Origin: Candidatus Moraniibacteriota bacterium
Lineage (GTDB): Bacteria; Patescibacteriota; Minisyncoccia; Moranbacterales; UBA1568
Direction: 5' to 3'
DNA: 64,000 nucleotides
NCBI GenBank assembly: GCA_016182385.1
Contig: JACPGV010000002.1
Coordinates: 125,190 to 189,189, forward strand
A program made the position numbers and the translations under genes. This document shows, piece by piece, positions 9,755 to 61,247 of this stretch; within the stretch, counting starts at the first letter, position 1; the number at the start of each line of letters is the position of its first letter. The notes below the pieces were generated by a model. That model saw only the letters and a program-made list of their open reading frames with translations. It was not told where the DNA came from and made no database searches.

Positions 9755-12700
9755 ATGCTTGAAAGATTCTTTAGGGGAAATGTTCGTAAAGATGCGACTG
9801 ACGATTCTCCCGGTGGCAGTGGGTCTCCGGAAAAAGAGGGCGCGATCGTTTTGTTGTCCCAGCAACCAGCTTCTTCTCAAGAGTGGCAGAATCAAAAAAA
9901 GAATTTTATTGTTCGCATTAGAGAAGTCGGCAAGAATGGTTTTCGTGTGGTTATTCATGATCGACGTCGAGGCGAAGACACGAGAGAAACGAAAGAAATG
10001 TCTCTTGATGCACTCAAAGCTCTTTTGTTGAGTGAGGGCTGTGCGCTTGTTGAGGCGCCTGTTGTGGCAAAGGTATCTCCGATAGCGCCTTTACCAACAC
10101 AAAAGGAAACCGTTGAGGAATCGCCCAAAAAAGAAAATGGAGAGAAAAACGTTTTGTTTGATCGGTTTTGTGCCATTGATGAAGAAATAAGGAAAAAAAC
10201 GGAAGAGGTAAGCGCTCTGATATCCGCGTTTCAGGGAAAAACCCTCCCGGAAAACGTAACAAACACTTATGAAAAGATATACGCGCGATACAGTGCTTTG
10301 GTTGACGAAAGCGACGCCTTCACGGAAGCAATAAACGCTCAGGATTCTCATACCGTCGATAAAGAAGCAGTAAAGCAACAAGAGAAATATTTACAAGGGT
10401 TTTCTCAGTGTGTGAATGATTTTTCTTCGTTGCGAGAGCAATTGAGCACTCAAGAGGTGCCATCAAGCGTTCCTTTGCCAAAAAAAACAACGGAGGGTGA
10501 TGACAAGATAAAAAGAGAGAAAAAAGAAGAACGTGTCTTGCGGGACTTTGAACAAAAAGTGATGTCTTTGCAAGAAGATTTTCGTCGCTCGATAGAAGAG
10601 GTCTCGGATATGGAAGGCCTTGTGGCGATTGGCACAAAAGAGTCACGGAGACGTATTTTTTTGGATAAGAAAGATCCGCAATGGAACGATGTTGCCAAAA
10701 AACTTTCACGCCCAGGAGCGGTTCAGGCAATGGCATTTCTTGAAGGAGTGAACAAGGAACTTCTTGATAGGTGGAAGAGAAAAAAAGAAGAATTGAAACA
10801 GCAATCGACACCTGTCAAAGAAACAAAAAAAAGAGGGAACCAGGAAGAGCCGGTAGTATCCGTGGTACCACAAGGAAAGGATGTTGTAAGGACAGCGAGC
10901 GTTCCTAAAAGATCAATGAGACGAAGAGGAGGAAAAGGAGGACAGGTGCCATTGGAGGACGCATCACAAGAACAAAATCCGGGAGAAAAGCAAAATGGAG
11001 CGGGAAAGAAGAAAGAGGGAGAAATCAACAAGGAATCAGCTAATGAAGAAGAAAAGACCCTGGCAGAGCTTACGAAGGCAAGGATTCTTTCTAACGAGGA
11101 TTTCATTCGTGGAGGTGCTCAGTATGTAAAAGATGATTCGGCAATCGATGGATTTCGATTGGATGTTACAGAAGAGCAAAAAAAAGCCGCGCAGGCGGAA
11201 ATGGAAAAAGAGCTTGCTGAAAAAGAGAAGCGCACAAAAGAACAAGAAGAACAGATGATGGGAAGTCGAGAGCTTTTTAAAGAGGAGCTTGTAAAAGGTG
11301 GCGCGGGTGTTTTTTATGATGAGAATGGTCAGGCGTTTATTGATCCGACAGCCGAACAAAGAGAAGCCTTGCAAAAAGAAGGCTCTCATCATCCTAGCAA
11401 GGTGGTAAAAAAAGAAGAAGAATTACTAGAGAAAAAGAATGGCGAAGGAGGTGGAGGTGATTTGTCGCCAGAAGAAAGAGAAAAAGGGGGAGAGGAGACA
11501 TTGTATGAGAAAATAGCGCGTCTTACCGAGGAGGTTGATACATTGAGAGAGAAATATATTAAAGAAGATTTTGAGCAAACGACGACGATGAAAAAACTAA
11601 AAAGTTTTTTTCGTTTGTCGGAAAATACGGCGGCACCGGAGCTTTCTTGGAGAAAATTGTATCAAGAAAAAATAAGGGAACTTCAGCGGGCAGAACTGCA
11701 AACGGTAGAAAGTGATACGGAGGATATTCATCGTTCCAAAGAAGATATTCAGGAAGGAAAGGGCCGATTGCTTGAGTATTATAGATTACAGGAGGCGATC
11801 AACGTTATTGACGCGCGTACAAAGTATCGCGCCGAATCAGAAACCTTTTTGGGAAAAGGTAAAGATGTTTTGATGGCGTTGGGAAGAAAATATAATGCTC
11901 TTTCTTTCAAGAAGAAGATGCTTCTTACCGGCGCGTTGACAGTGGGAGCGCTTGCTTCAGGCGGTATCGCTTCCGGTGCTTTGGCCGGAATGTTTATTGG
12001 AGTAAAAAGGGTATTGTCTGGCGCGGCGACAGCCGCCGGAACAGAAGCGTCTTGGGAAAAAATTTCTGAGAAGCGGAAGGCGTCGCAAGCGGAAAAGATA
12101 AAAAGGGAAATAGAAGAAAGGGTAGCGGGCGGAATGAACATGGAAGATTTGCAAAAAACTTTAGCGGAAGATGTTGGGACGGTTGATACAAAATTGCAAA
12201 AAGAGAAACGCGCGAAATCCTTTCGAAGAAGTGCTTCTCTTTTGGCTGGAGTGACGGTTGGTGGCGGAGGACTTTTGGCTGATGCTTTGATGACCGATCA
12301 TGTTTCGGAAGGGGTATCATCAAAGGAAATACTGCCGAAAGAGATGTCGCAAAACGTGATAGAAAAACCCGTTACCTCCTCCACGCCCTCTTTTTCTCTC
12401 GAACAAACGCTTGATGCGCGTGATAAGATGATAGGAGAAACAAGACGAGAGATTATTGACGAATTGGAGAGAGGAAACCAGGGTGTCGCTCAAGAAGCAC
12501 CTTCTTCGTCCTCATCAGTTTCTTCTCTTGAGCCCCTCATACGAGCTCATGAGGAGGTGACTCGTTCAGGAATGATACGGGGAGAGGAGACTCTTTTGGA
12601 AGAAAAACGAAACATCTTGCCGCAAACATCTGATGTGGCGGTAGAAACGAAAACATCTTTTGTAGAACAGACGCCTCGATTGCAAGCGCGCGCCGACAAT

Positions 12701-13036
12701 TGGTTCCAGCAGATTTTTCAGAGCGAGTACGTTTCTCCCGGGCAAGATGCTTTTTTTGATCGGCAAAAAATCGGCGGGACGAAACTTCTGGATATGATGC
12801 GTGATGCAAGATTGTACCGAGAAGGGTCTTTTTCTGGATATACCACAGGACTCAATGCTGAACAGATCAAAAGTTTCGCGGAGTTTTCCAAGAATACGGA
12901 AACGATAATTGGTCATCCTGCGATGAAAGAACTGTTACGCGCTCATCCCAATGCGACTATTGATGACTTTTTGAGGTCGGTGGCGCCACTTGTTCCTCGT
13001 GGGAAGCGGTTGGGACTTTTTACGACGGCAGTGTAA
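9755..13036 (+). CDS. giant hypothetical protein (1093 aa), E/K-rich coiled-coil with internal Gly/Ala-rich hydrophobic segments
   Basis: Long uninterrupted ORF, strongly charged low-complexity sequence (EEKK repeats), two hydrophobic G/A-rich stretches (LLTGALTVGALASGGIASGALAGMFIGV; LLAGVTVGGGGLLADAL) and a C-terminal approx 200 aa globular region. No recognisable enzymatic motif. Confidence 0.55.
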   Translation: MLERFFRGNVRKDATDDSPGGSGSPEKEGAIVLLSQQPASSQEWQNQKKNFIVRIREVGKNGFRVVIHDRRRGEDTRETKEMSLDALKALLLSEGCALVEAPVVAKVSPIAPLPTQKETVEESPKKENGEKNVLFDRFCAIDEEIRKKTEEVSALISAFQGKTLPENVTNTYEKIYARYSALVDESDAFTEAINAQDSHTVDKEAVKQQEKYLQGFSQCVNDFSSLREQLSTQEVPSSVPLPKKTTEGDDKIKREKKEERVLRDFEQKVMSLQEDFRRSIEEVSDMEGLVAIGTKESRRRIFLDKKDPQWNDVAKKLSRPGAVQAMAFLEGVNKELLDRWKRKKEELKQQSTPVKETKKRGNQEEPVVSVVPQGKDVVRTASVPKRSMRRRGGKGGQVPLEDASQEQNPGEKQNGAGKKKEGEINKESANEEEKTLAELTKARILSNEDFIRGGAQYVKDDSAIDGFRLDVTEEQKKAAQAEMEKELAEKEKRTKEQEEQMMGSRELFKEELVKGGAGVFYDENGQAFIDPTAEQREALQKEGSHHPSKVVKKEEELLEKKNGEGGGGDLSPEEREKGGEETLYEKIARLTEEVDTLREKYIKEDFEQTTTMKKLKSFFRLSENTAAPELSWRKLYQEKIRELQRAELQTVESDTEDIHRSKEDIQEGKGRLLEYYRLQEAINVIDARTKYRAESETFLGKGKDVLMALGRKYNALSFKKKMLLTGALTVGALASGGIASGALAGMFIGVKRVLSGAATAAGTEASWEKISEKRKASQAEKIKREIEERVAGGMNMEDLQKTLAEDVGTVDTKLQKEKRAKSFRRSASLLAGVTVGGGGLLADALMTDHVSEGVSSKEILPKEMSQNVIEKPVTSSTPSFSLEQTLDARDKMIGETRREIIDELERGNQGVAQEAPSSSSSVSSLEPLIRAHEEVTRSGMIRGEETLLEEKRNILPQTSDVAVETKTSFVEQTPRLQARADNWFQQIFQSEYVSPGQDAFFDRQKIGGTKLLDMMRDARLYREGSFSGYTTGLNAEQIKSFAEFSKNTETIIGHPAMKELLRAHPNATIDDFLRSVAPLVPRGKRLGLFTTAV

Positions 13037-13054
13037 TCTTTAACGTCTCTCTTT

Positions 13055-13363
13055 ATGGCACTTAATGAAAAAACATTGGAAAAAGATTTGATTGCAACAT
13101 TTCATCTGGAAGAATTACCCAAGGAAAAACAGCAGGCTCTGCTCGCTCGTATCGGTGAGGCTTTGTTGAGACGCGTTTTTTTGGAAACAATGGAAAAATT
13201 GGATACGGAAGACGTTGTTTTGTATGAGCGTTTGGTGAAAGAAAATGCGTCGCAAGAGCAAATGGAGACGTTTCTCGAGAATAAGATTCCGGGGTATAAT
13301 GTCTTTGTTCGTGGGGTGGTCGCGAAGTTTACCGAGGAAATGAAACGAGCGACGGCTCAGTGA
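13055..13363 (+). CDS. hypothetical protein (102 aa)
   Basis: ORF tightly spaced after the giant protein; helical, no known motif. Confidence 0.45.
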   Translation: MALNEKTLEKDLIATFHLEELPKEKQQALLARIGEALLRRVFLETMEKLDTEDVVLYERLVKENASQEQMETFLENKIPGYNVFVRGVVAKFTEEMKRATAQ

Positions 13364-13399
13364 GCGGAGAATTATTGATAATGAGTAACATGAGCATTT

Positions 13400-13828
13400 A
13401 TGGTTGAAGAAATTATTGGTGGAGAAAATGAGACGTTTTCGGAGAATCCAGAAAAGAATCCGAGAGAAGATATAATAGGAGGAGAGGTGATGTCGATACC
13501 AGAACAGGAACCTTCTTCTGAGGGCGCAAGTGAACAAGTAGAAACGAAGCTTGATACGCTACTTGCCAAACAATCTTCTTCTAGTGTGTCGGGGAGCACT
13601 CATGATGACGGCGTGGTCGCGATGGATGCCAAAAGTGTCGACGTGATGACCGATGAGGAGAGTAAGATACAGATGCTTTTGGATTTGGCGAGTACGAAGG
13701 GCGTGGTGCATGCCGTGAAGGTGGCGCGTAAGTTGAATGATTATTACGCTTTGGATTGCATGCATGATGAGCTTGTAGATAAGTTCTATGATGGTCTTTT
13801 GGAGCGGGGATTGATAGAAAAAGAATAG
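13400..13828 (+). CDS. hypothetical acidic protein (142 aa)
   Basis: ORF directly upstream of the ATPase gene, same strand, acidic composition. Confidence 0.45.
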   Translation: MVEEIIGGENETFSENPEKNPREDIIGGEVMSIPEQEPSSEGASEQVETKLDTLLAKQSSSSVSGSTHDDGVVAMDAKSVDVMTDEESKIQMLLDLASTKGVVHAVKVARKLNDYYALDCMHDELVDKFYDGLLERGLIEKE

Positions 13829-13870
13829 AGGACCACAGGGAGGGGTCATATAAAAACAAAAGAGCGTATT

Positions 13871-16360
13871 ATGGAGGGCTTTGATTTGAATATTTTTTTG
13901 GTGCCATTGACATCGTTACTGGCTTTGATAGCTCTTATAAGCGGTGCATTTTTGGTGGCCCGCAGTTTTTTTCGTTTTCGTTATCAAATCAATCAATCCA
14001 TGAATATGGATCTTGAGGTGATACGAGTAACGCATAAAGAAGTGCCTGAGGGACAGTCCCGCGAACAAAGCGCTGAAGCATGGAAAGAGGAAATTTTTGC
14101 TATGGAACGACTACTTTCTTCTTTGGCCGTACTCAAACCAAAGGGGGGTATGTGGAAAAGTTTGTTTTTTGATACTCCGACTATTATTTTTGAAATAGCC
14201 AATCCTTCTTCGAGCGAAGAAATTTCTTTTTATTTAAGTTTGCCGAAACGTTTTCGAGAAAGCGCGGAAAAACAAATTCATAGTTTTTTTCCGCAAGCCG
14301 TTATTGAAAAGATACCGGACTACACCATTTTTTCTCCGCAGAGCTTCACAGCCTTATCGGTGCTTACGCTCAAGTACAGTCACGCGCTTCCTTTGCGAAC
14401 CTATCGTATGGTTGACGTTGATCCTTTGAATGAGATTTCTAATGCGTTGAGTAAATTGAACACCATTGAGGAGGGTGCCGCCATTCAGTTGGTGTTGACG
14501 CGCGTTGGTTCGGGCTGGCGTAAAAAGGGGAAAGCCATCGCTCAAAAAATGCAGGAGGGAAAACGCTTGAAGGACGCCCAGTCTTCTTCTGTTGCTAAAG
14601 AATTGGCAGCAGAAATGGGTAAAGGGATGGTGGGGGCCTTGGCCGGAAGAAAAAAAGAATCTCTTCCTGAAGAAAAAAAGGTAGTAGCGCTTACACCGGA
14701 GGAACAAGAATTGTTGAAGTCGATTGATGAAAAAACAAACAAAAATGCTTTTCGGGTTAATATTCGTCTCATCGCTTCGGCAACTACGGAAGAACGAGCG
14801 GAGGAGATTCTTTCTCACATGGAAAATGCTTTTGGCCAATTTGAAAATCCAGAAGTAAATATGTTTCGCGTGAAGCATCGTAGTAAAAACAAACGTTCCG
14901 TGTATGATTATATTTTTCGTAATTTTGATGATGATGTTGAGATGACACTTACGGTTGATGAAATCGCCAGTATTTTTCATTTTCCCATTTCTACGACAAA
15001 AACACCGAAAATAAAATGGCTGAAAGCCGGAGCCGCGCCACCGCCGGTCAATATTCCAAATGAAGGAGCGTTGCTTGGTTTTAACGATTATCGTGGAACG
15101 AAAACCGATATCCGTATCACGGATAATGATCGTCGTCGGCATATGTACGTGATCGGACAAACCGGTGTCGGTAAATCGAATTATTTGCAAGAAATGGCGA
15201 AAAAAGATGCCAAATCCGGCAGAGGATTTTGTTTTATCGATCCTCATGGTGATGCCATTGAAGATATTTTGACAGCCATTCCCAAAGAGCGTGCCGAAGA
15301 TGTTATTGTATTTGATCCCGCGGATATTGGTCGCCCGATCGGTATCAATATGCTGGAATATGATCCGGAACATCCCGAGCAAAAAACATTCGTTATCAAT
15401 GAAATGATTGGTATTTTCGATCAATTGTATGATTTGAAAGCGACTGGTGGTCCGATGTTTGAACAATACATGAGAAATGCCATGCTCCTTATTATGGAAG
15501 ATCCGGAAAGTGGTTCGACACTTTTGGAAATATCGAAAGTGCTCGCTGATGAAGATTTTCGTCGTTATAAGCTTGAAAAATGTTCCAATCCTATAGTGCG
15601 CGATTTTTGGATTAAGGAGGCGGAAAAGGCTGGGGGAGAGGCGGCACTTGCCAATATGGTGCCGTACATTACATCCAAGTTAACAGCTTTTATCAGTAAT
15701 GATATGATGCGGCCGATCATTGCCCAACAAAAAAGCACGATTGATTTTCGAGAGATTATGGATGGTGGAAAGATTTTGCTCATCAATCTTTCCAAGGGAA
15801 AAATCGGAGAAATTAATGCCCGATTGCTTGGTATGGTTGTGGTAGGGAAGATTTTAATGGCGGCGCTTTCCCGTGTCAATACACCGGAAAATGAGCGACG
15901 CGATTTTTATCTTTATCTGGACGAGTTCCAAAACGTTACAACCACGTCTATTGCTCAAATTCTTTCAGAAGCCCGCAAATATCGTCTCGTTCTTATTTTG
16001 GCACACCAGTTTATCGGACAATTGAAAGAAGAAATATCAAAAGCGGTTTTTGGCAATGTTGGCTCTCTGGTGTCATTCCGCGTTGGACCGGAAGACGCGG
16101 AGTTTCTTGAAAAACAATTCGCCCCTGTTTTTACCGCGAGCGATATCATGAATGTCGATAATTACAATTGTTTTGTGCGACTTCTTATGAATAATGAGTT
16201 GACCAAGCCATTCAATATGAAGACATATCCGCCAACCCTTGGAAATCAAGAAATAGCGAACGCGCTGAAAGAACTTTCTCGTTTGCGTTATGGTCGTGAT
16301 GCCGCGATTGTAAACCGGGAAATCATGAGTCGTATCAAGTTGACCGAACGATTGCAATGA
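13871..16360 (+). CDS. membrane-anchored VirB4/VirD4(TraG)-family type IV secretion/conjugation ATPase
   Basis: 829 aa; N-terminal TM helix; Walker A VIGQTGVGKSNYL followed by FIDPHGD (DPKGE-like box of TraG/VirD4/VirB4), Walker B FYLYLDEFQNV, and ILAHQFIGQL (conserved Q..QL box of coupling proteins). Confidence 0.7.
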   Translation: MEGFDLNIFLVPLTSLLALIALISGAFLVARSFFRFRYQINQSMNMDLEVIRVTHKEVPEGQSREQSAEAWKEEIFAMERLLSSLAVLKPKGGMWKSLFFDTPTIIFEIANPSSSEEISFYLSLPKRFRESAEKQIHSFFPQAVIEKIPDYTIFSPQSFTALSVLTLKYSHALPLRTYRMVDVDPLNEISNALSKLNTIEEGAAIQLVLTRVGSGWRKKGKAIAQKMQEGKRLKDAQSSSVAKELAAEMGKGMVGALAGRKKESLPEEKKVVALTPEEQELLKSIDEKTNKNAFRVNIRLIASATTEERAEEILSHMENAFGQFENPEVNMFRVKHRSKNKRSVYDYIFRNFDDDVEMTLTVDEIASIFHFPISTTKTPKIKWLKAGAAPPPVNIPNEGALLGFNDYRGTKTDIRITDNDRRRHMYVIGQTGVGKSNYLQEMAKKDAKSGRGFCFIDPHGDAIEDILTAIPKERAEDVIVFDPADIGRPIGINMLEYDPEHPEQKTFVINEMIGIFDQLYDLKATGGPMFEQYMRNAMLLIMEDPESGSTLLEISKVLADEDFRRYKLEKCSNPIVRDFWIKEAEKAGGEAALANMVPYITSKLTAFISNDMMRPIIAQQKSTIDFREIMDGGKILLINLSKGKIGEINARLLGMVVVGKILMAALSRVNTPENERRDFYLYLDEFQNVTTTSIAQILSEARKYRLVLILAHQFIGQLKEEISKAVFGNVGSLVSFRVGPEDAEFLEKQFAPVFTASDIMNVDNYNCFVRLLMNNELTKPFNMKTYPPTLGNQEIANALKELSRLRYGRDAAIVNREIMSRIKLTERLQ

Positions 16361-16464
16361 GAGGAGCGGAACTGTTTTGGCCGAAGGAGAGACATTGATA
16401 ATTTTTTGTAGCAAAAAACACGCTAAGGAGAGAGGCGTGTTTTTTTGAAATGTAAAGAAGGATT

Positions 16465-18927
16465 TTATTCCTGAATCTCAATTTTAAAGGAGAGAAGGGT
16501 ATGATTGGTCATAATGAAGAGTTCGTTGTTTTTTTCGTTGACGACAAAAGAGAGGGCATCAGGAATTTTTTCTAATGAATACCGACGGAAGAGGGTTCCA
16601 TCTTGGCGGAAAATATAAAACATTTTCTGTGAAGCATCGAGAGCGTAGATATGCGTGAGATCTGGCGCGGTAAAGAGGGTCGTGAGAGTAAAAGGGGTGT
16701 CCGGTAAAGAAAACCGTGTGACGAGACGTCCCCGGAAAAAAGAAGAAAGGGTATTATCGGGACAAGAAAGAAAGAGTGTTTCGTGAATGGCGAATGTCGC
16801 GTTGTCTTCACAGGAAGTCTTTTCTTTGAGCCAAAAAGAGGCAGTGCCGAAACCGCCCGTAGCTCGTGGAAAGCGATAGATCTGATCGTGCGCGCTATCG
16901 AGGGCGTAAAGATACGTGAGGTATGTTCCGATGCTTTGAATATCAGCCCCTTCAGGGATATCCAGGTTGTTTTTGGTAAAGGCGTGAGTGATGGAGCTGA
17001 AAGAATAAAGTTCTTTTTTTGTGGTATAGAGGAAAATGAGACTCAGATCGTCCATAGCTGTCGCGAGACGGATAGTTCCGTTTTCTCTTGGAAAGGAATA
17101 TGTTTTTTGCTCACGGAGACTGAAAACAGTATTTTCGCCGATACCGTAAACTTCGTTATCGAGGAGGACTATTTTAATGAAAGGCGCTTCTTGAGTGGCG
17201 AGAGTGGAACCGTTTTCCAGGGAAGGAAATTTTTTATTATTTAGAGAAGAAAGAGATTCTATAGTTTCTTCATTTTCTAGAATTGTGTTCGGTGTTTCTT
17301 TTGTTGTTGCGGGACGTGTTGTCAGGAAAAAAAGAGTAAGAGAGAGAAGGGAAAGGAAGATCACTACAGAAAAAAATATTTTTTTCTGTAGTGGTGAGAG
17401 GGCGATATAACGAAGAGAAAGCGTTCGAAAGAGAACGCGTAAATGAAAAAGGAGCTTGTTTGAGACGTTTCCCAATTTGCGCCGAGCGATAGCGAGAGAA
17501 AGGAGAAGCTGGTTGGATATGCCGGGAGTTATTTTTTTCTGGTTATTTTTTTGATAGAAGGAGGCTATTTTTTCTTTGAGAAAATCAGGCGTTTCTGGAA
17601 TTGTTGCGGGATCAATCATTGTTACGGAATCAGTCGGAGAGAAAGAAGGTTCTTCGGATATTTTTTCGATTATTGAAGAATCTTTCTTGAGATGACGGAG
17701 AAAAGAGGTTGTTTTGACTTTCTCTTGTGCTACAAGAATGTTTTTTTGCCATTTTTTCTTCAAAAAACGTCCTGTGTTGCGTGAAACGAGAAAGAGTTTT
17801 TCCGTTCCTTGATAAAGAGAGAGTGAACCCTGTTTGCCTACTTTGCGAAAAAATCTTTTTTGTCCGGCAAAAAAATCATTAAACGCGTGAAGAATATTTT
17901 GAAAAAAGAGTGACAACCGCTCGATTGACGGATGTGATGCCGAAGAATCAGGAGTGTTCCCGTGCACATAAATATGTCCGGTTTTTGAATCAATATAATC
18001 CTTTGGTAAGGGGTCTTTTTCTTCTGGAGCGTTTTCCGCTGTTGCGATAGATGTAGGGGATTTTTCAATAAAAGTAGCGTTACTGAAGGCATTCATTACT
18101 GAAGCGTCTTGACGCGTTTCGGAAGAGTGTTTTTTGGGGGATTCTTGAATAATTTTTTCCTCGCAATCGATGATAAAAATACCGCTTCTATCAAGCTCGT
18201 TGGTAATGGCTGTACGTAAAAATTGAGCAAATTGCTCTTTATTCATGCGAGCGACTTGTTTTTCTAGAAGATCGAGAGGAAGTAGGGAGAGGGGTTCGGG
18301 AGAAGTAAAAATAATCTTATCTTCCGGCAAAAGTCTCCCACTCGAAACCTCGACGAAAGTTTTTATGGGGTGTGAAGAGGATTCTTCTGACGCAAGGCCA
18401 ACGCTTATTTCCGAGAGGGTGCCATTACGTGATAATAAAATAGTCCCTTGGCCGGTAACGGAAAAATGAATATTGTTTTTTTCGATTATTCCGAGAGTCC
18501 CGTGAAGTTTTCCAAGCCAAGAAATGTTTCCGTGTTTGACAAGCTCGGCCAGGGCGAGATTTATTTTATGGAGGGCGGCTTCGAAACTTTCGATGGCGCC
18601 GCGACGGGGGTTATTGAAATATTCTTTGCGAGCGACTGAGGAAAGGAAATTGACGATATACGCGGCATCTTCACTTTTTTCGGTTATTTCAAAAATTCCT
18701 ATGAGCGTACCTAAAGACGCGGCGACGACGTTTTCTCCGCTATAATGGAACGTTTTGATAAAAGGTTCATAGGAGCGATTGCCGACGACGAGAATTTCGG
18801 TAATCTCTTTTTCGATCTCTGTGAGAACCTTTGGTTTTTCTTGGCGTTTTTTCTCCGACATAACACGGGCAAAACAAGTCAAAACAATAGAAAGAGATTT
18901 TTCTTCAAACCTCTCACAGTATACCAT
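16465..18927 (-). CDS. hypothetical bitopic membrane protein (820 aa) with C-terminal repeat (beta-propeller-like) domain
   Basis: Long ORF, central TM helix (IFFSVVIFLSLLSLTLFFLTT), C-terminal repeats of the type IYALDSA/IYRF, FYIFRQDG; convergent with the ATPase gene. Confidence 0.5.
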   Translation of the reverse strand: MVYCERFEEKSLSIVLTCFARVMSEKKRQEKPKVLTEIEKEITEILVVGNRSYEPFIKTFHYSGENVVAASLGTLIGIFEITEKSEDAAYIVNFLSSVARKEYFNNPRRGAIESFEAALHKINLALAELVKHGNISWLGKLHGTLGIIEKNNIHFSVTGQGTILLSRNGTLSEISVGLASEESSSHPIKTFVEVSSGRLLPEDKIIFTSPEPLSLLPLDLLEKQVARMNKEQFAQFLRTAITNELDRSGIFIIDCEEKIIQESPKKHSSETRQDASVMNAFSNATFIEKSPTSIATAENAPEEKDPLPKDYIDSKTGHIYVHGNTPDSSASHPSIERLSLFFQNILHAFNDFFAGQKRFFRKVGKQGSLSLYQGTEKLFLVSRNTGRFLKKKWQKNILVAQEKVKTTSFLRHLKKDSSIIEKISEEPSFSPTDSVTMIDPATIPETPDFLKEKIASFYQKNNQKKITPGISNQLLLSLAIARRKLGNVSNKLLFHLRVLFRTLSLRYIALSPLQKKIFFSVVIFLSLLSLTLFFLTTRPATTKETPNTILENEETIESLSSLNNKKFPSLENGSTLATQEAPFIKIVLLDNEVYGIGENTVFSLREQKTYSFPRENGTIRLATAMDDLSLIFLYTTKKELYSFSSITHAFTKNNLDIPEGADIQSIGTYLTYLYALDSAHDQIYRFPRATGGFGTASFWLKEKTSCEDNATFAIHETLFLSCPDNTLSSFFRGRLVTRFSLPDTPFTLTTLFTAPDLTHIYALDASQKMFYIFRQDGTLFRRYSLEKIPDALSFVVNEKNNELFIMTNHTLLSFKIEIQE

Positions 18928-19722: not shown

Positions 19723-20805
19723 ATGACTCTTCTTGTGATTATTTTTCTTGGTATTCTTGTCGCCGGACTTTTTTTGTGGGCTTTTTTTTCATGGCGGGAA
19801 AGGACTTCCTCGCTTGATTTTCTGCGTCGTGATACGGAGGCGATGCAACGGAAGCTCGATGAACAGTGGCGCTCTTTTTCGGGCGCTCTCAATCAGCAAC
19901 TGGCTCATTTTCAGCAGACACTTGATAATCGATTGGCGGATTCCAGTCGTCGTCTTGATGAACGTCTTGATGGGGCGGCACGTTCATATGCTGATGTGCA
20001 AAAAAGCCTCGAACAAGTCAAGCAATCAAGTGAGAGAATTTTTGAAGTCGGAAAAGAAGTTGCTTCCCTTCAGGAAATTCTCAAGGCGCCAAAAATTCGT
20101 GGTGGCTTTGGAGAGCTTATGCTCAAAGATCTCCTCGCGCAGATGTTGCCCAAAGAAAATTTTATTTTGCAACACGCGTTCAAAAGTGGTGAAGCAGTGG
20201 ACGCACTTATTAAACTTAAGGGAGGTTCGGTCAGTGTTGATTCGAAATTTCCTTTGGAAAACTTCAAAAAAGTTCTATCGGCCAAGACCGACGAAGAACG
20301 AAAAACGGCGAGACGGTCGTTTTATGTTGATGTCAAAAAACACGTGGACGCGATTGCGACCAAGTATATTGTTCCCGAAGAGGGGACGCTTGATTTTGCT
20401 CTTATGTATATTCCGGCGGAAAACGTGTATTATGAGGTGATTATCAAAGATGATGATGGACAGGGACTGCTTGATTATTTGACCACAAAAAGAATTATCC
20501 CGGTTTCTCCGAACTCTTTTTATGCCTATATGCGCACCATCCTTTTTGGCCTACAGGGATTGCAAATAGAAAAACGGGCAAAGGAAATTATGGGACAATT
20601 GGAAAAACTTACAAGAGAGCACGAACGGTTTTCGAAAGAATTTGATGTTTTGGGAAGCCATATCGGAAACGCTCATAAAAAATTTGAGGACGCGGAAAAA
20701 TATTTGCACCGAGTAGGGGATCACTTGGAGCGTGCTCGTTTGGGCGTGGAACAGGAGTCGCCGCGCGTAGAGGGCGCGGAGGATAAAAATGATGGAGCAT
20801 TATGA
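19723..20805 (+). CDS. rmuC: DNA recombination protein RmuC
   Basis: 360 aa; N-terminal TM helix then long coiled coil and C-terminal RmuC nuclease-like region (GGFGELMLKDLL..., YIVPEEGTLDFALMYIPAENVYYEV). Confidence 0.8.
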   Translation: MTLLVIIFLGILVAGLFLWAFFSWRERTSSLDFLRRDTEAMQRKLDEQWRSFSGALNQQLAHFQQTLDNRLADSSRRLDERLDGAARSYADVQKSLEQVKQSSERIFEVGKEVASLQEILKAPKIRGGFGELMLKDLLAQMLPKENFILQHAFKSGEAVDALIKLKGGSVSVDSKFPLENFKKVLSAKTDEERKTARRSFYVDVKKHVDAIATKYIVPEEGTLDFALMYIPAENVYYEVIIKDDDGQGLLDYLTTKRIIPVSPNSFYAYMRTILFGLQGLQIEKRAKEIMGQLEKLTREHERFSKEFDVLGSHIGNAHKKFEDAEKYLHRVGDHLERARLGVEQESPRVEGAEDKNDGAL

Positions 20806-28534: not shown

Positions 28535-29437
28535 ATGTGGTATCTTACTGTCCCGCCCATTATTGTTGTTGTCAGTCTCCTGCTCGTGTTGTGGTATCTT
28601 TCACGCAGGGGAGCTGATCCCGTTATCGCGGAAAAAGTCTCTCAAGGAGAACGGGAAGCTTTGAAGAAGGCGTCTTTTTTTCGTACGAAATCTTTTTTCT
28701 TGCGAGTCTTGGAAAAAACAGCACAGCGTTTTAAAGTGCAATCGTTGCGAATGCACAATACGCTTCATGTATGGACGCAATCTTTAAAAGAGCGTCGAAG
28801 ATTATTTCAAGAAAAAACTTCTCCGATGCCGCCCGTTGATGCCAAAGAAGAATATTCGATATCGCAAGAAATAGCTTCTTTTTCCGCTCCTGTTGTTTCA
28901 GAAAAAAAAGAGATTGCTCATCGTGGGAATCTCTTGCGTCGTTTTTTTGGCAAAGAAACGGTGGTAAAAGATGAAGTGCAGGCGTCTCTCACAAATATCA
29001 AGGAAGAGCGGGTATTTGATGGAGAAAAAAAATCGCAAGAACAAGAAAGAATAATAACATTTGAACAACCTCTTGTCCGCCGGCGCAAGGAAGAGACAAT
29101 TCGTGAATCCATTCTTGAGCCGCGACCCACCGTAAGCGATAAGGTTGCGCGTCCCGAATCGGTTAAAAAGAATCTTTTCAAGCGAGAAACACGTGCGCGT
29201 GAAGAAGATTTTATTGCTCGCATAGCAGTCAATCCAAAGGACTTTACTGCGTATGAGGGGCTGGGCGATTATTATCTTGAGATTGGTAATGTGAAGGATG
29301 CCAAAGAATGTTATCGACAAGTACTCAAGCTTTCACCGGTGCATCGAATGGTGAAGATCAAGATACGTCGTTTGGAAAAAATTCTTTCTCAAAAATCAGA
29401 TGACGAATCTCTTGAGAACGAAAGAATAATAGGGTAA
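28535..29437 (+). CDS. hypothetical membrane-anchored protein with C-terminal TPR-like helix pair
   Basis: 300 aa; N-terminal TM helix; C-terminal AYEGLGDYYLEIGNVKDAKECYRQVLKLSP TPR motif. Confidence 0.5.
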   Translation: MWYLTVPPIIVVVSLLLVLWYLSRRGADPVIAEKVSQGEREALKKASFFRTKSFFLRVLEKTAQRFKVQSLRMHNTLHVWTQSLKERRRLFQEKTSPMPPVDAKEEYSISQEIASFSAPVVSEKKEIAHRGNLLRRFFGKETVVKDEVQASLTNIKEERVFDGEKKSQEQERIITFEQPLVRRRKEETIRESILEPRPTVSDKVARPESVKKNLFKRETRAREEDFIARIAVNPKDFTAYEGLGDYYLEIGNVKDAKECYRQVLKLSPVHRMVKIKIRRLEKILSQKSDDESLENERIIG

Positions 29438-29463
29438 AATAGAGAGACGCGTTTTTTGATCGT

Positions 29464-29537
29464 GCCACCTTAGCTCAGCTGGTTAGAGCAACAGTTTTGT
29501 AAACTGTGGGTCCTCGGTTCGAATCCGAGAGGTGGCT
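29464..29537 (+). tRNA. tRNA-Thr (anticodon TGT)
   Basis: Cloverleaf: acceptor GCCACCT/AGGTGGC, D-arm GCTCAGCTGGTTAGAGC, anticodon loop TTTGTAA, T-arm GGTTCGAATCC; no encoded CCA. Confidence 0.85.
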
Positions 29538-29566
29538 CAAGAGAAATGAAAAAGAGATGGTTTTTT

Positions 29567-29650
29567 GGGTAGGTGGCGGAGTGGTCAATCGCAGCAGACT
29601 GTAAATCTGTCGTCCTTCGGACTTCGGGGGTTCGAATCCCTCCCTGCCCA
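29567..29650 (+). tRNA. tRNA-Tyr (anticodon GTA), long variable arm
   Basis: Acceptor GGGTAGG/CCTGCCC, anticodon loop ACTGTAAAT, long variable arm, T-arm GGGGGTTCGAATCCCTC; 29 nt after tRNA-Thr. Confidence 0.85.
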
Positions 29651-29699
29651 CGAGAATAAACTATAAAAGCACCCAGTAATGGGTGCTTTTATAGTTTTG

Positions 29700-29853
29700 T
29701 TTTGAGGAGAGAGGGATGCGAACGGACAGGAACGAGTAGCGAGCGAAGGCGAGCTAAATGAGTGTCGACGGATGCGCGTGAGCAAGCATTCGTCGTTGCC
29801 CCGGGCAACGAAGTCGTCAGCAGACGACGAGGCGGAAATCCCTCCCTGCCCAC
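29700..29853 (+). repeat. tRNA-linked structured repeat element, unit 1 (core GAGTAGCGAGCGAAGGCGAGCTAAATGAGTGTCGACGGATG...; ends with copy of tRNA-Tyr 3' end GAAATCCCTCCCTGCCCAC)
   Basis: Follows a hairpin terminator (29661-29692). 5' part is degenerate antisense of the T-arm (AGGGATGCGAACGG). Core is shared with the 61248-61391 copy. Confidence 0.7.
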
Positions 29854-29898
29854 AAAAAGCAAAATCCCGTGCCATCAAGACACGGGATTTTGCTTTTT

Positions 29899-29976
29899 GG
29901 GTAGGAGGAAGCCAACTGCTTGGCTTCCGAGAGGGGTGAGAATCTTTACCCGCCTTTGGCGGGCCTCCCTACCCAC
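29899..29976 (+). repeat. tRNA-like hairpin element, unit 2 of tandem (GGGTAGG...CCTACCCAC closing stem mimicking the tRNA-Tyr acceptor)
   Basis: Preceded by its own hairpin terminator (29854-29897). Perfect 7-bp terminal stem GGGTAGG/CCTACCC, internal hairpins GAAGCCAA-CTGC-TTGGCTTC and CCCGCC-TTTG-GGCGGG. Ends ...CCTCCCTACCCAC, resembling the tRNA-Tyr 3' end. Confidence 0.55.
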
Positions 29977-30066
29977 TGATCGACACAAAAGCGACTTGTC
30001 TCGCGCCGGGCATTTTTTTCTTTATGAGTTATAATGAAGAAACAGACTAAATTTTCGTTTAATTGA

Positions 30067-30726
30067 ATGAATAAAATAATGATTATGAAAAAAGTATTAG
30101 CAATGAGCTTGGTAGTGTTTGGTACGGTATTTTTGGCCGGATGTGGACAATGGCAAACAAGTCAGACACAGTTAACAACGCCGGCTCCTGTGGCACAACA
30201 ATCACCGATGGATTCTTCGGTTCCAACGCAGCCAACACTTCAGAAACAAGAAGTTCAAGATAAGACCGTGCCGGTTCCAAGCAACTGGACAACGTACACC
30301 GACTCCAGATATGGGTTTGAATTAAGATTACCAGGCGAACTAATCGAACAAATTTTTTTTGAAGGTTCGGTAACTGTTTCAGGAAAAACATACAAAACGA
30401 TTCAGTTGACGAATGTGGGCGCTAATGGGGAAAGCGTAAGGATTATTAAGGGATGGTCAAACCCCGCTATTGATCCGTATGGTAATAAGCAATACTCCAA
30501 TGAGCCACAAATTGCCTTAAGCGGAATAACGTGGAACGTGTTCTATAACCCAGAACAAGACTTGGCCGGTTGTGAGATGGCAACGTTTCAAACGCTGATG
30601 CCAAATGGAAACGACACGATTGTGGTTTACAAACATGATCCAACCGAATGCCCAGGTAATTCTGAAAAATCGCCGAGTATTGCTTTCCTCAAACAAGCGC
30701 TTTCTACTTTCAAGTTTACAAAATAA
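30067..30726 (+). CDS. hypothetical lipoprotein
   Basis: 219 aa; signal peptide with lipobox LAGC (MKKVLAMSLVVFGTVFLAGCGQ); no catalytic motif. Confidence 0.55.
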   Translation: MNKIMIMKKVLAMSLVVFGTVFLAGCGQWQTSQTQLTTPAPVAQQSPMDSSVPTQPTLQKQEVQDKTVPVPSNWTTYTDSRYGFELRLPGELIEQIFFEGSVTVSGKTYKTIQLTNVGANGESVRIIKGWSNPAIDPYGNKQYSNEPQIALSGITWNVFYNPEQDLAGCEMATFQTLMPNGNDTIVVYKHDPTECPGNSEKSPSIAFLKQALSTFKFTK

Positions 30727-30851
30727 GGCCGTCAAAACCCTTTCTTATTAGGAGTGGTGATTTTTATTTTTTCACTCTAGACTTTTTGTAAAAAAACGCT
30801 AGAATAAGAAAAGTCTCAACGAATAGTTGAGGCTCGTATTTTTGAAAATAA

Positions 30852-30924
30852 GCCGTTGTAGCTCAGCTGGTAGAGCACCACCATGGTAAGGTGGGGGTCA
30901 CCGGTTCAATCCCGGTCAACGGCT
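30852..30924 (+). tRNA. tRNA-Thr (anticodon GGT)
   Basis: Acceptor GCCGTTG/CAACGGC, anticodon loop ATGGTAA, T-arm GGTTCAATCC. Confidence 0.85.
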
Positions 30925-30949
30925 CAGAAATGACTTCAAGTCTGGTTTT

Positions 30950-31093
30950 TTGGAAGGTAAGAAAAAGCGGAGAAGGGGATTGAACGGGGAAGGGGTCGGG
31001 AAACGGGAGTTTCCTGTTCGGGGTGACAGCGCATCGCCAGAGGGCGGAAGCCCTATGGAGAGCGAAGCGAGTGAAATCCGAGTCAACGGCTCA
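30950..31093 (+). repeat. tRNA-linked structured repeat element (contains GGGGATTGAACGGGG antisense T-arm piece and GAGAGCGAAGCGAG core; ends with GAAATCCGAGTCAACGGCTCA, a copy of the tRNA-Thr 3' end)
   Basis: Direct comparison with the tRNA-Thr(GGT) 3' end (AATCCCGGTCAACGGCTCA). GC-rich, no coding potential; ORF 30950-31198 in the track is a spurious translation of this element. Confidence 0.65.
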
Positions 31094-31184
31094 AAAAGGA
31101 CGGAAAACCAAGGTTTGGTGTTGACGAAAAACGATTTTTCCCGTACAGTGAAAAAGCTTTGTAAATCGTTTGAAGGTTGGAATT

Positions 31185-31346
31185 ATGGGACAAATTAAGG
31201 ATACGTTGGCAAAAATGAAATGTTCCGCTTGCGGACGTATTACGCATTACACTAAACGGAACAAGAAAAAGGTAAAGGAAAAGCTCGAGCTCTCCAAATA
31301 CTGCCGTTTTTGCAAGAAGAACGTGACACACACCGAGAGCAAATAG
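31185..31346 (+). CDS. rpmG: 50S ribosomal protein L33
   Basis: Not in the ORF track (53 aa): MGQIKDTLAKMKCSACGRITHYTKRNKKKVKEKLELSKYCRFCKKNVTHTESK; C..C...Y.T.KN...LEL.KYC..C..H.H.E.K signature of L33. TTGACG-17-TACAGT promoter about 50 nt upstream; conserved rpmG-tRNA-Trp synteny. Confidence 0.8.
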   Translation: MGQIKDTLAKMKCSACGRITHYTKRNKKKVKEKLELSKYCRFCKKNVTHTESK

Positions 31347-31392
31347 CTCTCGGTTTTGGTATACTGTAGAGGTGATTAAAAAATGAGAAAAT

Positions 31393-31463
31393 GGGGGTGT
31401 CGTATAATGGTAGTACAAGGGTCTCCAAAACCCTTTGCGTGGGTTCGATTCCTACCACCCCTG
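31393..31463 (+). tRNA. tRNA-Trp (anticodon CCA)
   Basis: Anticodon loop CTCCAAA, T-arm GTGGGTTCGATTCCTAC, acceptor with G:U at pair 1-72; 3-bp D stem. Confidence 0.75.
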
Positions 31464-31477
31464 CGGAATTGTTTTTT

Positions 31478-31549
31478 GGCCCCATCGTCTATCGGCTAGG
31501 ACATCAGGTTCTCATCCTGAAAAGAGGGGTTCGATTCCCCTTGGGGCTA
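31478..31549 (+). tRNA. tRNA-Glu (anticodon CTC)
   Basis: Acceptor GGCCCCA/TGGGGCT, anticodon stem TCAGG/CCTGA with loop TTCTCAT, T-arm AGGGGTTCGATTCCCCT. Confidence 0.8.
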
Positions 31550-31703
31550 CAGATTAACCAAAACCTCCAGGAATCATCATGGAGGTTTTGGTTTATGTAT
31601 CTAGGGGGAATCGAAGGGCGCGAGTAGAATCTGAGCGAGCGAGGATTCTGTGTGTAGCGCCCAGGCTCCGAGTCGGAGCGAGGAGGATTCCCCTTGGGGC
31701 TAC
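31550..31703 (+). repeat. tRNA-linked structured repeat element (bidirectional terminator hairpin AAAACCTCCA-GGAATCATCA-TGGAGGTTTT; antisense T-arm piece GGGGGAATCGAAGG; core GAGTAGAATCTGAGCGAGCGAGGATTCTG; ends with GGATTCCCCTTGGGGCTAC, a copy of the tRNA-Glu 3' end)
   Basis: Near-identical second copy at 61046-61199 behind tRNA-Glu(TTC); the hairpin loop is reverse-complemented between the copies. Confidence 0.75.
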
Positions 31704-31830
31704 AGGTATTAATAAAAATCACCCTTCTTTTTAGAGGGAGTGATTTTTATTGGGATTTTTCGTACTGACTTGACAGGAGCAGATAATTTTCCTATAAAGC
31801 TATTTCAGCACTTTAATAGGAGGAAGTGTC

Positions 31831-42310: not shown

Positions 42311-43809
<1,499 letters not shown>

Positions 43810-44278: not shown

Positions 44279-45346
44279 ATGCCAAAAATTACCAGCAATA
44301 AACTAAACGAACGGCAAAACGTTATATTAGTTTTTATCGAAGACAGTAAATCTGTTTCAATTGGACAGATTTTTGAGCATATCCAAAATGGTTTTGAGAA
44401 GATTACGAGGATAACTGTTTCAAGAGATTTGGAAAAATTGCTAAACATCAATTTAATTGAAAAACAAGGAAAATCAAAAAGAACTATCGTTTATCGGATT
44501 TCGTCCCAGTATTCGATGCTGAAAAAAATTGATGTTGAAAAATATTTTGCTCAAGATGTTGACCAACGAAAAATCAGAGAAACTTTTAACTTTGATATTT
44601 TTAGTCAATTGAAAGATATTTTCACTGAGACTGAAAAAAACAGACTCTCAGAGCTGAATGATATTTACCGAGATAAGATAAAGGACATTGCACCAGATGC
44701 TTTTAGAAAGGAAATTGAGAGACTAAATATCGATTTTAGCTGGAAGTCTTCCAAGATTGAGGGTAATACTTACAGTTTGCTAGAAACCGAACAGCTTATC
44801 AAAAACCAGCAAGAAGCCTCAGGTCATACCAAGGAGGAGGCCGTGATGATTTTGAATCACAAGAAGACTCTGGACTATATTGGAAATAATAAAAAGGATT
44901 TCCAATTGGTATCTGTTGCTAAGATTGAAAATGTCCATTCTTTTCTGGTAGATGGTTTGAACGTGACCAAAAATTTGAGAAAAAGTTTGGTAGGAATAAC
45001 TGGCACGAATTACAAGCCATTGGATAATGAATTCCAAATCAGAGAGGCTTTAGAAAAGACTTGTCAAACAGTCAATGAAACAAAAAACGTTTTTGAAAAA
45101 GCGGTGATTTTGATGTTGCTTATCGCATATATCCAGCCGTTTGTTGATGGCAATAAAAGAACGAGTCGTTTAAGTGGCAATGCCGTTTTGCAATCGTTTG
45201 ATTCCTGTCCGCTTTCGTATCGCAGTATGGACGAAATTGAATACAAAAAGGCGATTTTACTATTCTATGAGCAGAATAATATCTCATACTTCAAGGAATT
45301 GTTCTTGAAGCAGTTTGAGTTTGCTGTGGAAAATTACTTCGGATGA
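44279..45346 (+). CDS. HTH-Fic/DOC family protein with degenerate Fic motif (QPFVDGNKRTSR instead of HPFx[DE]GNGRxxR)
   Basis: 355 aa; N-terminal wHTH (ITRITVSRDLEKLLNINLIEK), central Fic core ...AVILMLLIAYIQPFVDGNKRTSRLSGNAVL; coding GC is much lower (about 33-35%) than surrounding genes. Confidence 0.75.
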   Translation: MPKITSNKLNERQNVILVFIEDSKSVSIGQIFEHIQNGFEKITRITVSRDLEKLLNINLIEKQGKSKRTIVYRISSQYSMLKKIDVEKYFAQDVDQRKIRETFNFDIFSQLKDIFTETEKNRLSELNDIYRDKIKDIAPDAFRKEIERLNIDFSWKSSKIEGNTYSLLETEQLIKNQQEASGHTKEEAVMILNHKKTLDYIGNNKKDFQLVSVAKIENVHSFLVDGLNVTKNLRKSLVGITGTNYKPLDNEFQIREALEKTCQTVNETKNVFEKAVILMLLIAYIQPFVDGNKRTSRLSGNAVLQSFDSCPLSYRSMDEIEYKKAILLFYEQNNISYFKELFLKQFEFAVENYFG

Positions 45347-49899: not shown

Positions 49900-49998
49900 A
49901 AACGAAATTGCGAATTCCGTTTTGAGTCAAAAACACAATACGCGCGAGCCGCCGAGCGAAGCGAGGCGACTTCTGAATCCTTGACTTTTCCAACGCGG
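49900..49998 (-). repeat. tRNA-Arg-adjacent GC-rich element carrying the shared motif CCGAGCGAAGCGAGG (plus-strand orientation)
   Basis: Immediately 3' of tRNA-Arg(TCG) on its strand; contains GAGCGAAGCGAG as in the other tRNA-linked elements; ORF 49601-49984 in the track is a spurious translation. Confidence 0.45.
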
Positions 49999-51760: not shown

Positions 51761-51828
51761 CCTTTGTTTACTTCTTTTGTTCAAAGAAAAGGCCTAGAAG
51801 TCCGCGGTTTCCCGCCTGCCAAAGTCTG

Positions 51829-61199: not shown

Positions 61200-61247
61200 C
61201 AATTGAAACAAACATCTACTCTTTCAGGAGCAGATGTTTGTTTTTGT

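Follow-up and report, generated by a model that had tools for sequence, protein, structure and literature searches.

The sequence that follows each of two tRNA-Glu genes in the stretch of Candidatus Moraniibacteriota DNA analysed here (64,000 nucleotides, hereafter the window) is, in the reading that we lean towards, a non-coding, non-autonomous insertion module of about 150 bp that is specific to the 3' ends of tRNA and tmRNA genes in Moranbacteria. The unit lies at the exact 3' end of an intact tRNA gene, with an 18-nt direct repeat of the tRNA end on both of its sides, and the tRNA gains the unit's own predicted terminator while the native terminator is displaced downstream. A single core family follows about 23 tRNA species and one confirmed tmRNA gene, its tail nearly always agreeing with the gene upstream, and units are found in tandem arrays that include truncated and decayed copies.

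Pairwise alignment and a repeat search placed both trailers in a single 226-nt repeated block (31478-31703 and 60974-61199), each copy of which consists of a tRNA-Glu gene and a 153-nt trailer, with identity spanning from the first base of the tRNA to the final base of a second copy of the tRNA end (S2). Two C/T mismatches fall in the tRNA, one in the D loop (31496/60992) and one that makes the anticodon CTC in one gene and TTC in the other (31511/61007). Beyond these two bases the sole difference between the blocks is the 10-nt loop of a hairpin, and the remaining 143 positions of the trailers are without any difference. An earlier note on this DNA had described near-identical tRNA-Glu trailers 29.5 kb apart and had proposed that the blocks be aligned, and the alignment yields just this picture. 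The same note had allowed that the two loci might be collapsed copies of one region, which is ruled out by Logan short-read contigs (SRR12113420, SRR12113421) that match the window exactly on all four flanks; as these independent contigs match both loci, the loci are two real ones. Three of the four contigs end 30 nt into the repeat, and the other (L002) reaches further in, near the anticodon difference. The parts of the two loci are:

31478-31550, plus strand: tRNA-Glu(CTC), from ARAGORN, Rfam (tRNA, 56.7 bits) and the sequence
31533-31550: S1, the final 18 nt of tRNA-Glu(CTC), GATTCCCCTTGGGGCTAC, from T-loop position 57 to the discriminator plus C
31556-31593, no strand assigned: term1 hairpin, its stem 31556-31569 / 31580-31593 between an A-run (left) and a T-run (right); folds at -22.8 kcal/mol, z -5.5
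31570-31579, no strand assigned: term1 loop GGAATCATCA, probably the inverted version (alignment and repeat search)
31600-31615, plus strand: AS, TCTAGGGGGAATCGAA, the 5' strand of closing stem P1 (sequence, fold and P1 covariation)
31616-31685, plus strand: family A core, a predicted three-way junction (alignments, RNAalifold and pair counts; nhmmer match 31615-31687)
31686-31703, plus strand: S2, the second tRNA-Glu 3' end (GATTCCCCTTGGGGCTAC), comprising the P1 3' strand and a single-stranded tail
31714-31748, no strand assigned: term2, native terminator of the tRNA-Glu(CTC) locus, ortholog of the hairpin directly 3' of tRNA-Glu in a close relative (L059)
60974-61046, plus strand: tRNA-Glu(TTC), two bases unlike the CTC gene (ARAGORN, Rfam and alignment)
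61052-61089, no strand assigned: second term1 copy, loop 61066-61075, TGATGATTCC
61096-61199, plus strand: second AS (61096-61111), family A core (61112-61181) and S2 (61182-61199), identical to 31600-31703

Each trailer runs from the terminator-like hairpin (term1) through AS and the family A core to S2. AS is antisense to the tRNA T loop, the 3' strand of the T-stem and the start of the acceptor 3' strand, and S2 is a sense copy of the tRNA 3' end, which is how the earlier note had read the two ends of the element. The core is predicted to form helices P2 (GGGCGCG/CGCGCCC), P2a (AGAAUCU/GGAUUCU) and P3 (CUCCGAG-UCGGAG-CGAGGAG), joined by the conserved junctions GAAG, GAGUAG, CUGUGUGUAG and GGAGGA. 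The plus-strand fold of the element is a three-way junction with AS:S2 as its closing stem (-50.3 kcal/mol, z -4.3), and the minus-strand fold is weaker (-36.6 kcal/mol, z -2.6). When the tRNA is included, an alternative appears in which AS and the 3' half of the tRNA pair across the hairpin to make one long hairpin (-51.7 kcal/mol, z -7.5). Folding with and without the tRNA therefore recovered both of the pairings that had been suggested for the ends, with each other and with the tRNA, and the stem formed by the first of these, P1, covaries in 66 relatives. The term1 hairpin, which had been described as bidirectional, has a 14-bp stem with AAAA before it and TTTTGGTTT after it and folds at about -23 kcal/mol on both strands, agreeing in form with a predicted bidirectional terminator; it is omitted by a terminator consensus scan, where the loop limit is 8 and the term1 loop is 10.

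The loops of the two term1 copies, GGAATCATCA at 31570-31579 and TGATGATTCC at 61066-61075, match at 4 of 10 positions when compared directly and at 10 of 10 as reverse complements, with their orientation given by one assembly alone. The stem around them is a perfect 14-bp inverted repeat (AACCAAAACCTCCA / TGGAGGTTTTGGTT). Because the flanks just outside the stem keep their orientation, the inversion is confined to the loop and its end-points lie inside the stem, and the claim that the loops are exact reverse complements holds with the stem intact. A single inversion accounts for six clustered mismatches in an otherwise identical block, and the chance of two unrelated 10-mers being reverse complements is about 1e-6. 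The two loop versions, at -22.8 and -23.7 kcal/mol, are equally stable, on either strand, and the inversion is predicted to be neutral for the hairpin. A hairpin from another genome (L050) has the loop GGATGATTCC, which is the orientation of the TTC locus, so that the CTC copy is, from this comparison of sequences, probably the flipped one.

True loop flips are rare: among about 75 comparable homologous hairpin pairs, oriented by their flanks, the window pair is the only case. A count of 39 flips made before this flank-based orienting was an artefact of locus orientation. When metagenomes were scanned for the exact Glu hairpin, whatever its loop, there were 0 matches. This rarity suggests that the flip is probably a minor secondary event, incidental to the module. 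Bacterial quasi-palindromes undergo template switching, and the flip is best explained by template switching or by recombination across the 14-bp inverted repeat. Its exact reverse-complement loop, perfect stems and unchanged flanks are those of the minute inversions of hairpin loops that occur in plastid non-coding DNA, such as the trnH-psbA spacer (PMC2903610), and in the plastids of Lobeliaceae (PMC9653739). In both settings a short loop becomes its exact reverse complement between perfect inverted repeats and the hairpin is unaffected, but the plastid inversions are seen between species or individuals, whereas the Moranbacteria case involves paralogous copies on one bacterial chromosome.

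An assembly or consensus artefact at a palindromic hairpin within a 226-bp repeat, with the same loop or a mixture of loops really present at both loci, seems to us a most improbable source of the difference. Short-read assemblies break in the repeat and nothing independent crosses the loop, de Bruijn graphs can be confused by hairpins, and the flip is unique among the comparable pairs. The stem, however, is only 14 bp long and its flanks are non-complementary, so any k-mer of at least 21 fixes the orientation of the loop. The two tRNA differences lie about 60-75 nt from the loop, so phasing by single reads is possible, and an exact 10/10 reverse complement with intact stems would not be expected from error.

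The window holds three more tRNA-linked modules, behind tRNA-Tyr, tRNA-Thr and tRNA-Glu(TTC), with families B, C and, putatively, D among them:

29567-29651, plus strand: tRNA-Tyr, which opens the array 29567-29976
29658-29697: hairpin after tRNA-Tyr
29706-29853, plus strand: family C unit of 148 nt, its tail the tRNA-Tyr 3' end
29855-29898: second hairpin of the tRNA-Tyr array
29899-29976, plus strand: short unit with a full acceptor-like stem, GGGTAGGAGG / CCTCCCTACCC
30852-30925, plus strand: tRNA-Thr(GGT), which opens 30852-31092
30968-31092, plus strand: family B unit, its tail AAATCCGAGTCAACGGCTC the tRNA-Thr 3' end with 2 mismatches
61206-61243, no strand assigned: hairpin between the family A unit and an older unit (sequence)
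61253-61391, plus strand: older, decayed family C unit in tandem, AS AGAAAAATCGAACC, tail AATTTTTCTTGGGGTTAC (repeat search)

The short unit at 29899-29976 contains the family D motif AAGCCAACTGCTTGGCTT, yet gives no family D profile match. In the older unit at 61253-61391 one inner hairpin has been destroyed, and P1 is preserved by a change from GGGG:CCCC to AAAA:UUUU.

We surveyed loci encoding ribosomal protein L33 (rpmG), the gene for which is adjacent in the window, in GTDB species representatives, 80 loci and the window, almost all of which are named Moranbacteria or Moraniibacteriota. Near L33, 65 of 308 tRNAs (21%) repeat their last 16 nt, with at most 2 mismatches, within 450 nt downstream, against 1 in an upstream control and 2 in a reverse-complement control. 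The repeats follow Glu(CTC) in 28 of 63 cases, Tyr in 19 of 51, Trp in 10 of 73 and Thr(GGT) in 5 of 55. In most units with a detected AS, this segment starts 42-60 nt past the tRNA and is preceded by a long hairpin with an A-run and a T-run. Clustering of the units resolved no fewer than four unrelated cores (A to D) as well as short forms, and each core was found with ends fitting different tRNAs. Profiles of the cores, with the tRNA-derived ends trimmed, gave 84 matches, 60 of them no more than 150 nt 3' of a tRNA on the same strand and a further 15 in arrays. One tRNA-Glu (L167) was seen without its own 3' end.

Family A was also recovered from metagenomes (97 contigs, retrieved with a 20-nt pattern), where 66 of 99 matches lie within 150 nt of a tRNA and the tails match the upstream tRNA in most cases. 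The tRNAs that it follows belong to the Ala, Asp, Gln, Glu, Gly, Leu, Lys, Met, Pro, Ser, Trp, Tyr and Val types, the confirmed tmRNA gene is that of L095 (Rfam, 135 bits), and the family also stands behind several tmRNA-like 3' ends that are uncalled by Rfam or ARAGORN. Two genomes (L008 and L060) each carry near-identical copies behind different tRNAs. In 104 distinct pairs, S1 and S2 share 93-100% identity across the final 14 nt of the tRNA. In 59 family A units, identity of 86-100% begins exactly at T-loop position 57, and on both sides of the repeat it falls sharply to background. Where the tRNA gene encodes CCA, this is copied into the tail too. About 10% of family A copies have no hairpin between the tRNA and the unit.

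Comparison of related genomes revealed precise presence and absence of the units. In the close relative L059, tRNA-Glu(CTC) is without the 153-bp unit and the ortholog of 31714-31748 lies directly next to the gene, which indicates that the unit, including term1, was inserted or precisely deleted between the lineages. This empty site narrows the earlier proposal of recent duplication, gene conversion or mobility, which was right. Beyond its term2 ortholog L059 has a tiny relic of AS plus tail, and its tRNA-Tyr unit, hairpin included, is about 95% identical to the window's. Across such comparisons, the sequence next to an empty tRNA matched what lies beyond S2 in a filled relative in 54 of 60 instances and matched term1 in 6. 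The tRNA-Trp gene normally abuts tRNA-Glu, and in filled loci a hairpin, AS, core and S2 lie in between, from which it appears that the hairpin comes with the unit. The L050 locus has term1 and AS as in the window but a family D core, indicating that cores have been exchanged. The arrays contain truncated 3' halves of older units. A suggestion that the unit nearest the tRNA is the youngest was set aside: its Wilcoxon p = 0.003 was inflated by chance distal matches, and under a stricter cut-off the counts were 8, 5 and 5, which is not significant.

Pair counts in the alignments show the core and its closing stem AS:S2 to be maintained as a predicted secondary structure on the tRNA strand. For family A, where an earlier alignment of 11 sequences (RNAalifold) was followed by one of 66 distinct copies, helices P1, P2, P2a and P3 have 85.5% of cells paired, versus 78% in shuffled alignments; none of 500 shuffles reached 85.5%, and slid partners gave 40-50%. 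Double changes occur at 18 of 31 pairs in the 66-copy alignment, at 23 of 41 pairs in family C and at 16 of 32 in family B, and pair 23-62, for example, reads C-G 40 times and U-G 25. Over P2 and P2a together, 46 G-U pairs stand against 4 A-C pairs. This excess indicates that the structured strand is the plus (tRNA) strand, and these counts, with the weaker fold, rule out an RNA from the minus strand. The loops and junctions of family A are almost invariant, and P1 covaries with the T-stem of the tRNA. The outer, acceptor-derived pairs of P1 form in only about 55% of family A copies, suggesting that AS consists mostly of the near-universal GGGAUUCGAA and a few target-specific bases. Among tRNA-like features, P1 holds the 3' strand of the T-stem and part of the acceptor strand, and only 29899-29976 has a full acceptor-like stem.

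Rfam at gathering threshold over the whole window matched tRNAs and 16S rRNA only, and with E up to 10 over 29400-31800 the elements were again unmatched, by group I and II intron, tmRNA and T-box models among others; hammerhead, twister, pistol, hatchet and HDV-like ribozymes and K-turns were found neither by Rfam nor by eye. Pfam scans found no integrase, transposase or reverse transcriptase in the units or in the 56 ORFs of the window. A promoter scan found no sigma-70-like site ahead of any unit, nor is a -10 box conserved in the AT-rich spacer that follows the hairpin. Four matches to the family A pattern turned up in 2.9 million viral contigs; these covered only the searched 17-mer and are hence due to chance, and the family B pattern had 0. 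Neither a description of the module in the searchable literature nor an Rfam family for it was found. TIGR-Tas arrays (PMC12045711) and group I tRNA introns (PMC13011429) were compared and are unrelated. An IS605/TnpB-like guide model is not favoured, as the protein partner is absent, and neither is a rolling-hairpin flip/flop, as the inversion affects the loop alone and leaves the remaining asymmetric segments of the long palindrome as they are. Of about 25 Glu units, 3 have CCA after S2, a number near chance, and tRNA-primed reverse transcription is not favoured, CCA not being copied. Retro-element models are weakened as well by the fact that no group II introns are reported from Patescibacteria (PMC13011429).

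The insertion reading draws on a repeat that starts in the T loop and reaches the 3' end, on the occurrence at tRNA as well as tmRNA genes, on presence and absence that are precise, on the arrays with relics and on the patchy distribution. Several observations weigh against it. Neither the units nor the ORFs of the window encode a recombinase, transposase or reverse transcriptase, and ordinary double-stranded site-specific recombination needs a larger circle than one of about 150 bp. A precise absence in a relative could be an S1-S2 deletion, and term1 varies between copies with near-identical cores, which is odd for the end of a transposon. The conserved loops and the compensated P1 of 61253-61391 are as compatible with a host function as with a selfish one. 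Host function is also the main rival. It would make the trailer a beneficial RNA, co-transcribed with the tRNA, whose closing stem and tail mimic the T-stem and acceptor 3' strand; it might signal to RNase P, RNase Z or the CCA-adding enzyme in processing or stability, be a decoy for the factors by which tRNA 3' ends are bound or attacked, or act as a sensor through pairing with the 3' half of the tRNA. Selection for structure on the tRNA strand, together with nearly invariant loops and junctions, argues for such an RNA, as does an S2 that keeps the unpaired acceptor tail and discriminator as in a tRNA. The four double changes that keep P1 in the old copy and the complete acceptor-like stem of the short unit point the same way, and the family A copies without an intervening hairpin would be co-transcribed with their tRNA. 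However, units are patchy and stand on only about a fifth of the surveyed tRNAs, different families occupy the same tRNA among genomes, sites are empty in close relatives, and the tandem arrays hold truncated relics. At least four unrelated cores share the common layout, and a strong terminator-like hairpin stands before most units; with this hairpin upstream and no promoter-like site, expression as RNA is only putative. On this evidence we regard a host RNA as unlikely, though a serious contender.

Very unlikely, in our judgement, is a third account, in which the units are integration scars, the attL- or attR-proximal remnants of kilobase-sized prophages or islands that entered at the T loop through tyrosine integrases and were then internally deleted. 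Such islands are defined by a direct repeat of the tRNA 3' end that starts in the T loop (PMC4383910, PMC1762012), a tmRNA gene is used too, and in one locus (L027) a 376-aa ORF lies between two tails. Random deletions would not, however, have produced one and the same 105-nt family A sequence, bounded alike, in at least 66 distinct copies at about 23 tRNA species. The covariation signals selection on structure, core homologs are absent from the viral contigs beyond the chance 17-mer matches, and no integrase is nearby.

If the units are insertion modules, entry may occur by recombination within the shared 18-nt block of the tRNA end, either Campbell-type or as gene conversion, with the T loop as the crossover point. 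The agent could be a trans-acting factor or the host's own recombination. The T loop is the classic target position of tRNA-integrating elements; Williams is said to have described, in 2002, a T-loop sublocation of tyrosine-integrase insertion in tRNA and tmRNA genes. The universal bases of the T loop and T-stem (GAAUCC / GGAUUC) would let a core family switch its tRNA host, with the outer, target-specific bases of AS adapting after the switch. A Glu-adapted family A unit may then recently have reached both tRNA-Glu genes, whose 3' halves are identical, spreading to the second by insertion or by conversion with the tRNA as its left limit and S2 as its right; such bounds would give identity from the first tRNA base to the end of S2. 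Later, the 10-nt loop of one copy would have been inverted by intrastrand template switching or inverted-repeat recombination. More tentatively, the units might be elements of a hitherto unrecognised sort that act through RNA: a bacterial SINE- or viroid-like mobile RNA, or a single-stranded DNA, with a folded, tRNA-like attachment site (as in the CTX phage) that is re-targetable to any tRNA, or else CPR tRNA-end mimics that process, protect or sense tRNAs, with the core as the binding or catalytic part of further machinery. In the mobile version, the S-hairpin-AS segment would copy the T-stem and acceptor duplex of the tRNA gene.

Several known systems share part of this design. In Islander, islands in tRNA and tmRNA genes are marked by a displaced tRNA 3' fragment (PMC4383910), and in mycobacteriophage Ms6 attP and attB lie in the tRNA T loop (PMC1762012). 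As in such islands and prophages, the ends of our units are marked by a complete tRNA or tmRNA gene on one side and a displaced piece of its 3' end on the other, with a repeat from the T loop to the 3' end, and tRNA and tmRNA genes, tandem arrays and precise presence and absence are common to both. Islands, however, are kilobases long and carry an integrase, whereas the Moranbacteria units are 50-200 bp, have no ORF, and have no recombinase among the 56 window ORFs searched with Pfam. Unlike islands, one core family of units serves many tRNA species, the units add an antisense copy (AS) that pairs with the displaced fragment, and their core is a covarying RNA structure.

Bacterial miniature structured repeats include MITEs, Correia elements, REP/BIME and RPE. 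The units resemble these in being small, non-coding and present in many copies per lineage, with inverted-repeat ends that fold into a closing stem, and terminator-like hairpins can be carried by both. They differ from these repeats in lying strictly at tRNA and tmRNA 3' ends, on the same strand, and in having terminal repeats that are copied from the adjacent gene and not fixed within a family: AS and S2 vary with the tRNA, the window has no transposase, and the viral contigs have no homolog of cores A and B. We know of no parent transposon for the units. Functional trailers and tRNA-like ends include the E. coli 3'ETS-leuZ sponge, the tRNA-like domain of tmRNA, viral tRNA-like structures and tRNA-derived SINEs. 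Like the units, these are RNAs that come from or resemble the region 3' of a tRNA, with an acceptor-like strand at the end; the units differ in having no full acceptor stem (with one exception), no encoded CCA rule and a modular core behind a terminator-like hairpin, and their function is only proposed. Patescibacteria also have tRNA genes that carry group I introns, at anticodon loop position 35/36 (PMC13011429). These are likewise structured RNA insertions tied to tRNA genes in the same phylum, but they interrupt the gene, whereas the units follow an intact tRNA, are far smaller and have no Rfam intron match.

The genomes of Moranbacteria are tiny, yet about one in five of the surveyed tRNA genes near rpmG carries at least one module. 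The presence of one core behind so many tRNA genes and a tmRNA suggests that tRNA 3' ends are read or copied generally, in a sequence-matched manner. For genome work, the modules cause short-read assemblies to break at tRNA genes, supply annotations with spurious partial tRNAs and can hide genes, as at L167, and the flipped loop offers a clean bacterial case of hairpin-loop inversion between paralogs. Should the units be mobile, they would be smaller than any other tRNA-targeting element known, could have their target match reset, and would provide material for studies of site-specific insertion; if they serve the host, they would represent a new layer of tRNA biology in a phylum where RNA processing is poorly understood.

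The unit behind tRNA-Glu at window 31551-31703 and its counterpart in a different species (L050:4448-4621) have orthologous hairpins and orthologous AS segments, which are antisense to the 3' side of the tRNA T-arm, but the core belongs to family A in the window and to the unrelated family D in L050. This combination of shared flanks and unlike cores implies, from sequence comparison, core replacement, in which cores would have been swapped inside two conserved edges, GAAGGG on one side and GGAGGA on the other. Whole units, comprising hairpin, AS, core and tail (the second copy of the tRNA 3' end), were also found as exact or near-exact tandem duplicates behind a single tRNA at L005, L010, L024, L047, L048, L084, L089 and L105; the tRNA-Trp loci L024 and L084 carry an additional family that has no recognisable AS.

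A decayed family C unit is present at window 61253-61391. Its inner hairpin has been destroyed and its closing stem has been preserved by four double changes, GGGG:CCCC to AAAA:TTTT, every one of them from GC to AT. Either selection on the stem or palindrome-correcting template switching could explain this retention.

At L095:112-621 (minus strand) a tmRNA gene, scored at 135 bits by Rfam, has a family A unit immediately 3' of it, and units of the same family follow tmRNA-like 3' ends (...GGTTCAAATCCACCCTCTCCGCCA) in L091, L169, L171, L172 and L183; these ends were called by neither Rfam nor ARAGORN. At L167:2400-2700 and L163:1560-1760, only the 5' part of tRNA-Glu(TTC) is present, ending at the 5' strand of the T-stem (...AAACAGGGG) and joined directly to the hairpin; AS, a core of family A and GGATTTTCCTTAGGGCTAC come next. 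Both handles denote one locus, with half of the hairpin lost in L163. The native 3' end (S1) is absent and ARAGORN gives no tRNA there. The gene may be dead, or else the tRNA is genuinely split in the T loop.

At L027:4614-5830, the tail of a family B unit and an extra copy of the tRNA-Glu tail (GAGATTTCCCCTTAGGGCTAC) enclose a gene for a predicted membrane protein of 376 aa, which is preceded by a perfect extended -10 box (TGTGATATAAT); tails can therefore have protein-coding cargo between them.

Motifs related to tRNAs or to the units were also found near tRNA-Arg genes in the window, one of which is:

51828-51900, minus strand, tRNA-Arg(TCT)

About 20 nt downstream of this gene, CCGCGGACTTCTAGGCC (51791-51807, minus strand) nearly copies its anticodon arm (GCCGCGGACTTCTAAGCC), a type of partial tRNA duplication that differs from the 3'-end copies of the units. 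Downstream of tRNA-Arg(TCG), GCCTCGCTTCGCTCGGCGG (49945-49970, minus strand) is the reverse complement of GAGCGAAGCGAGG, a motif frequent in element cores; there is no tail copy or profile hit at this place.

Elsewhere in the window are a full-length 16S rRNA gene (42311-43807) and, next to it, a gene for a Fic-domain protein (44279-45343). A 23S rRNA gene is absent throughout the 64 kb, and the rRNA genes appear to be unlinked. The region 9755-18924 encodes a VirD4/TraG-like coupling ATPase (13871-16357) with a very large protein on either side, of 1093 and 819 aa, neither with a Pfam match; these genes may specify an apparatus for DNA transfer or DNA uptake. The window also encodes an RmuC-family protein (19723-20802; Pfam, given as 1.9e-56 and reported as 7.5e-56). 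In E. coli, rmuC mutants show increased inversion at short inverted repeats, and this may be relevant to the loop flip, the reverse-complementation of the 10-nt hairpin loop between the two tRNA-Glu units of the window.
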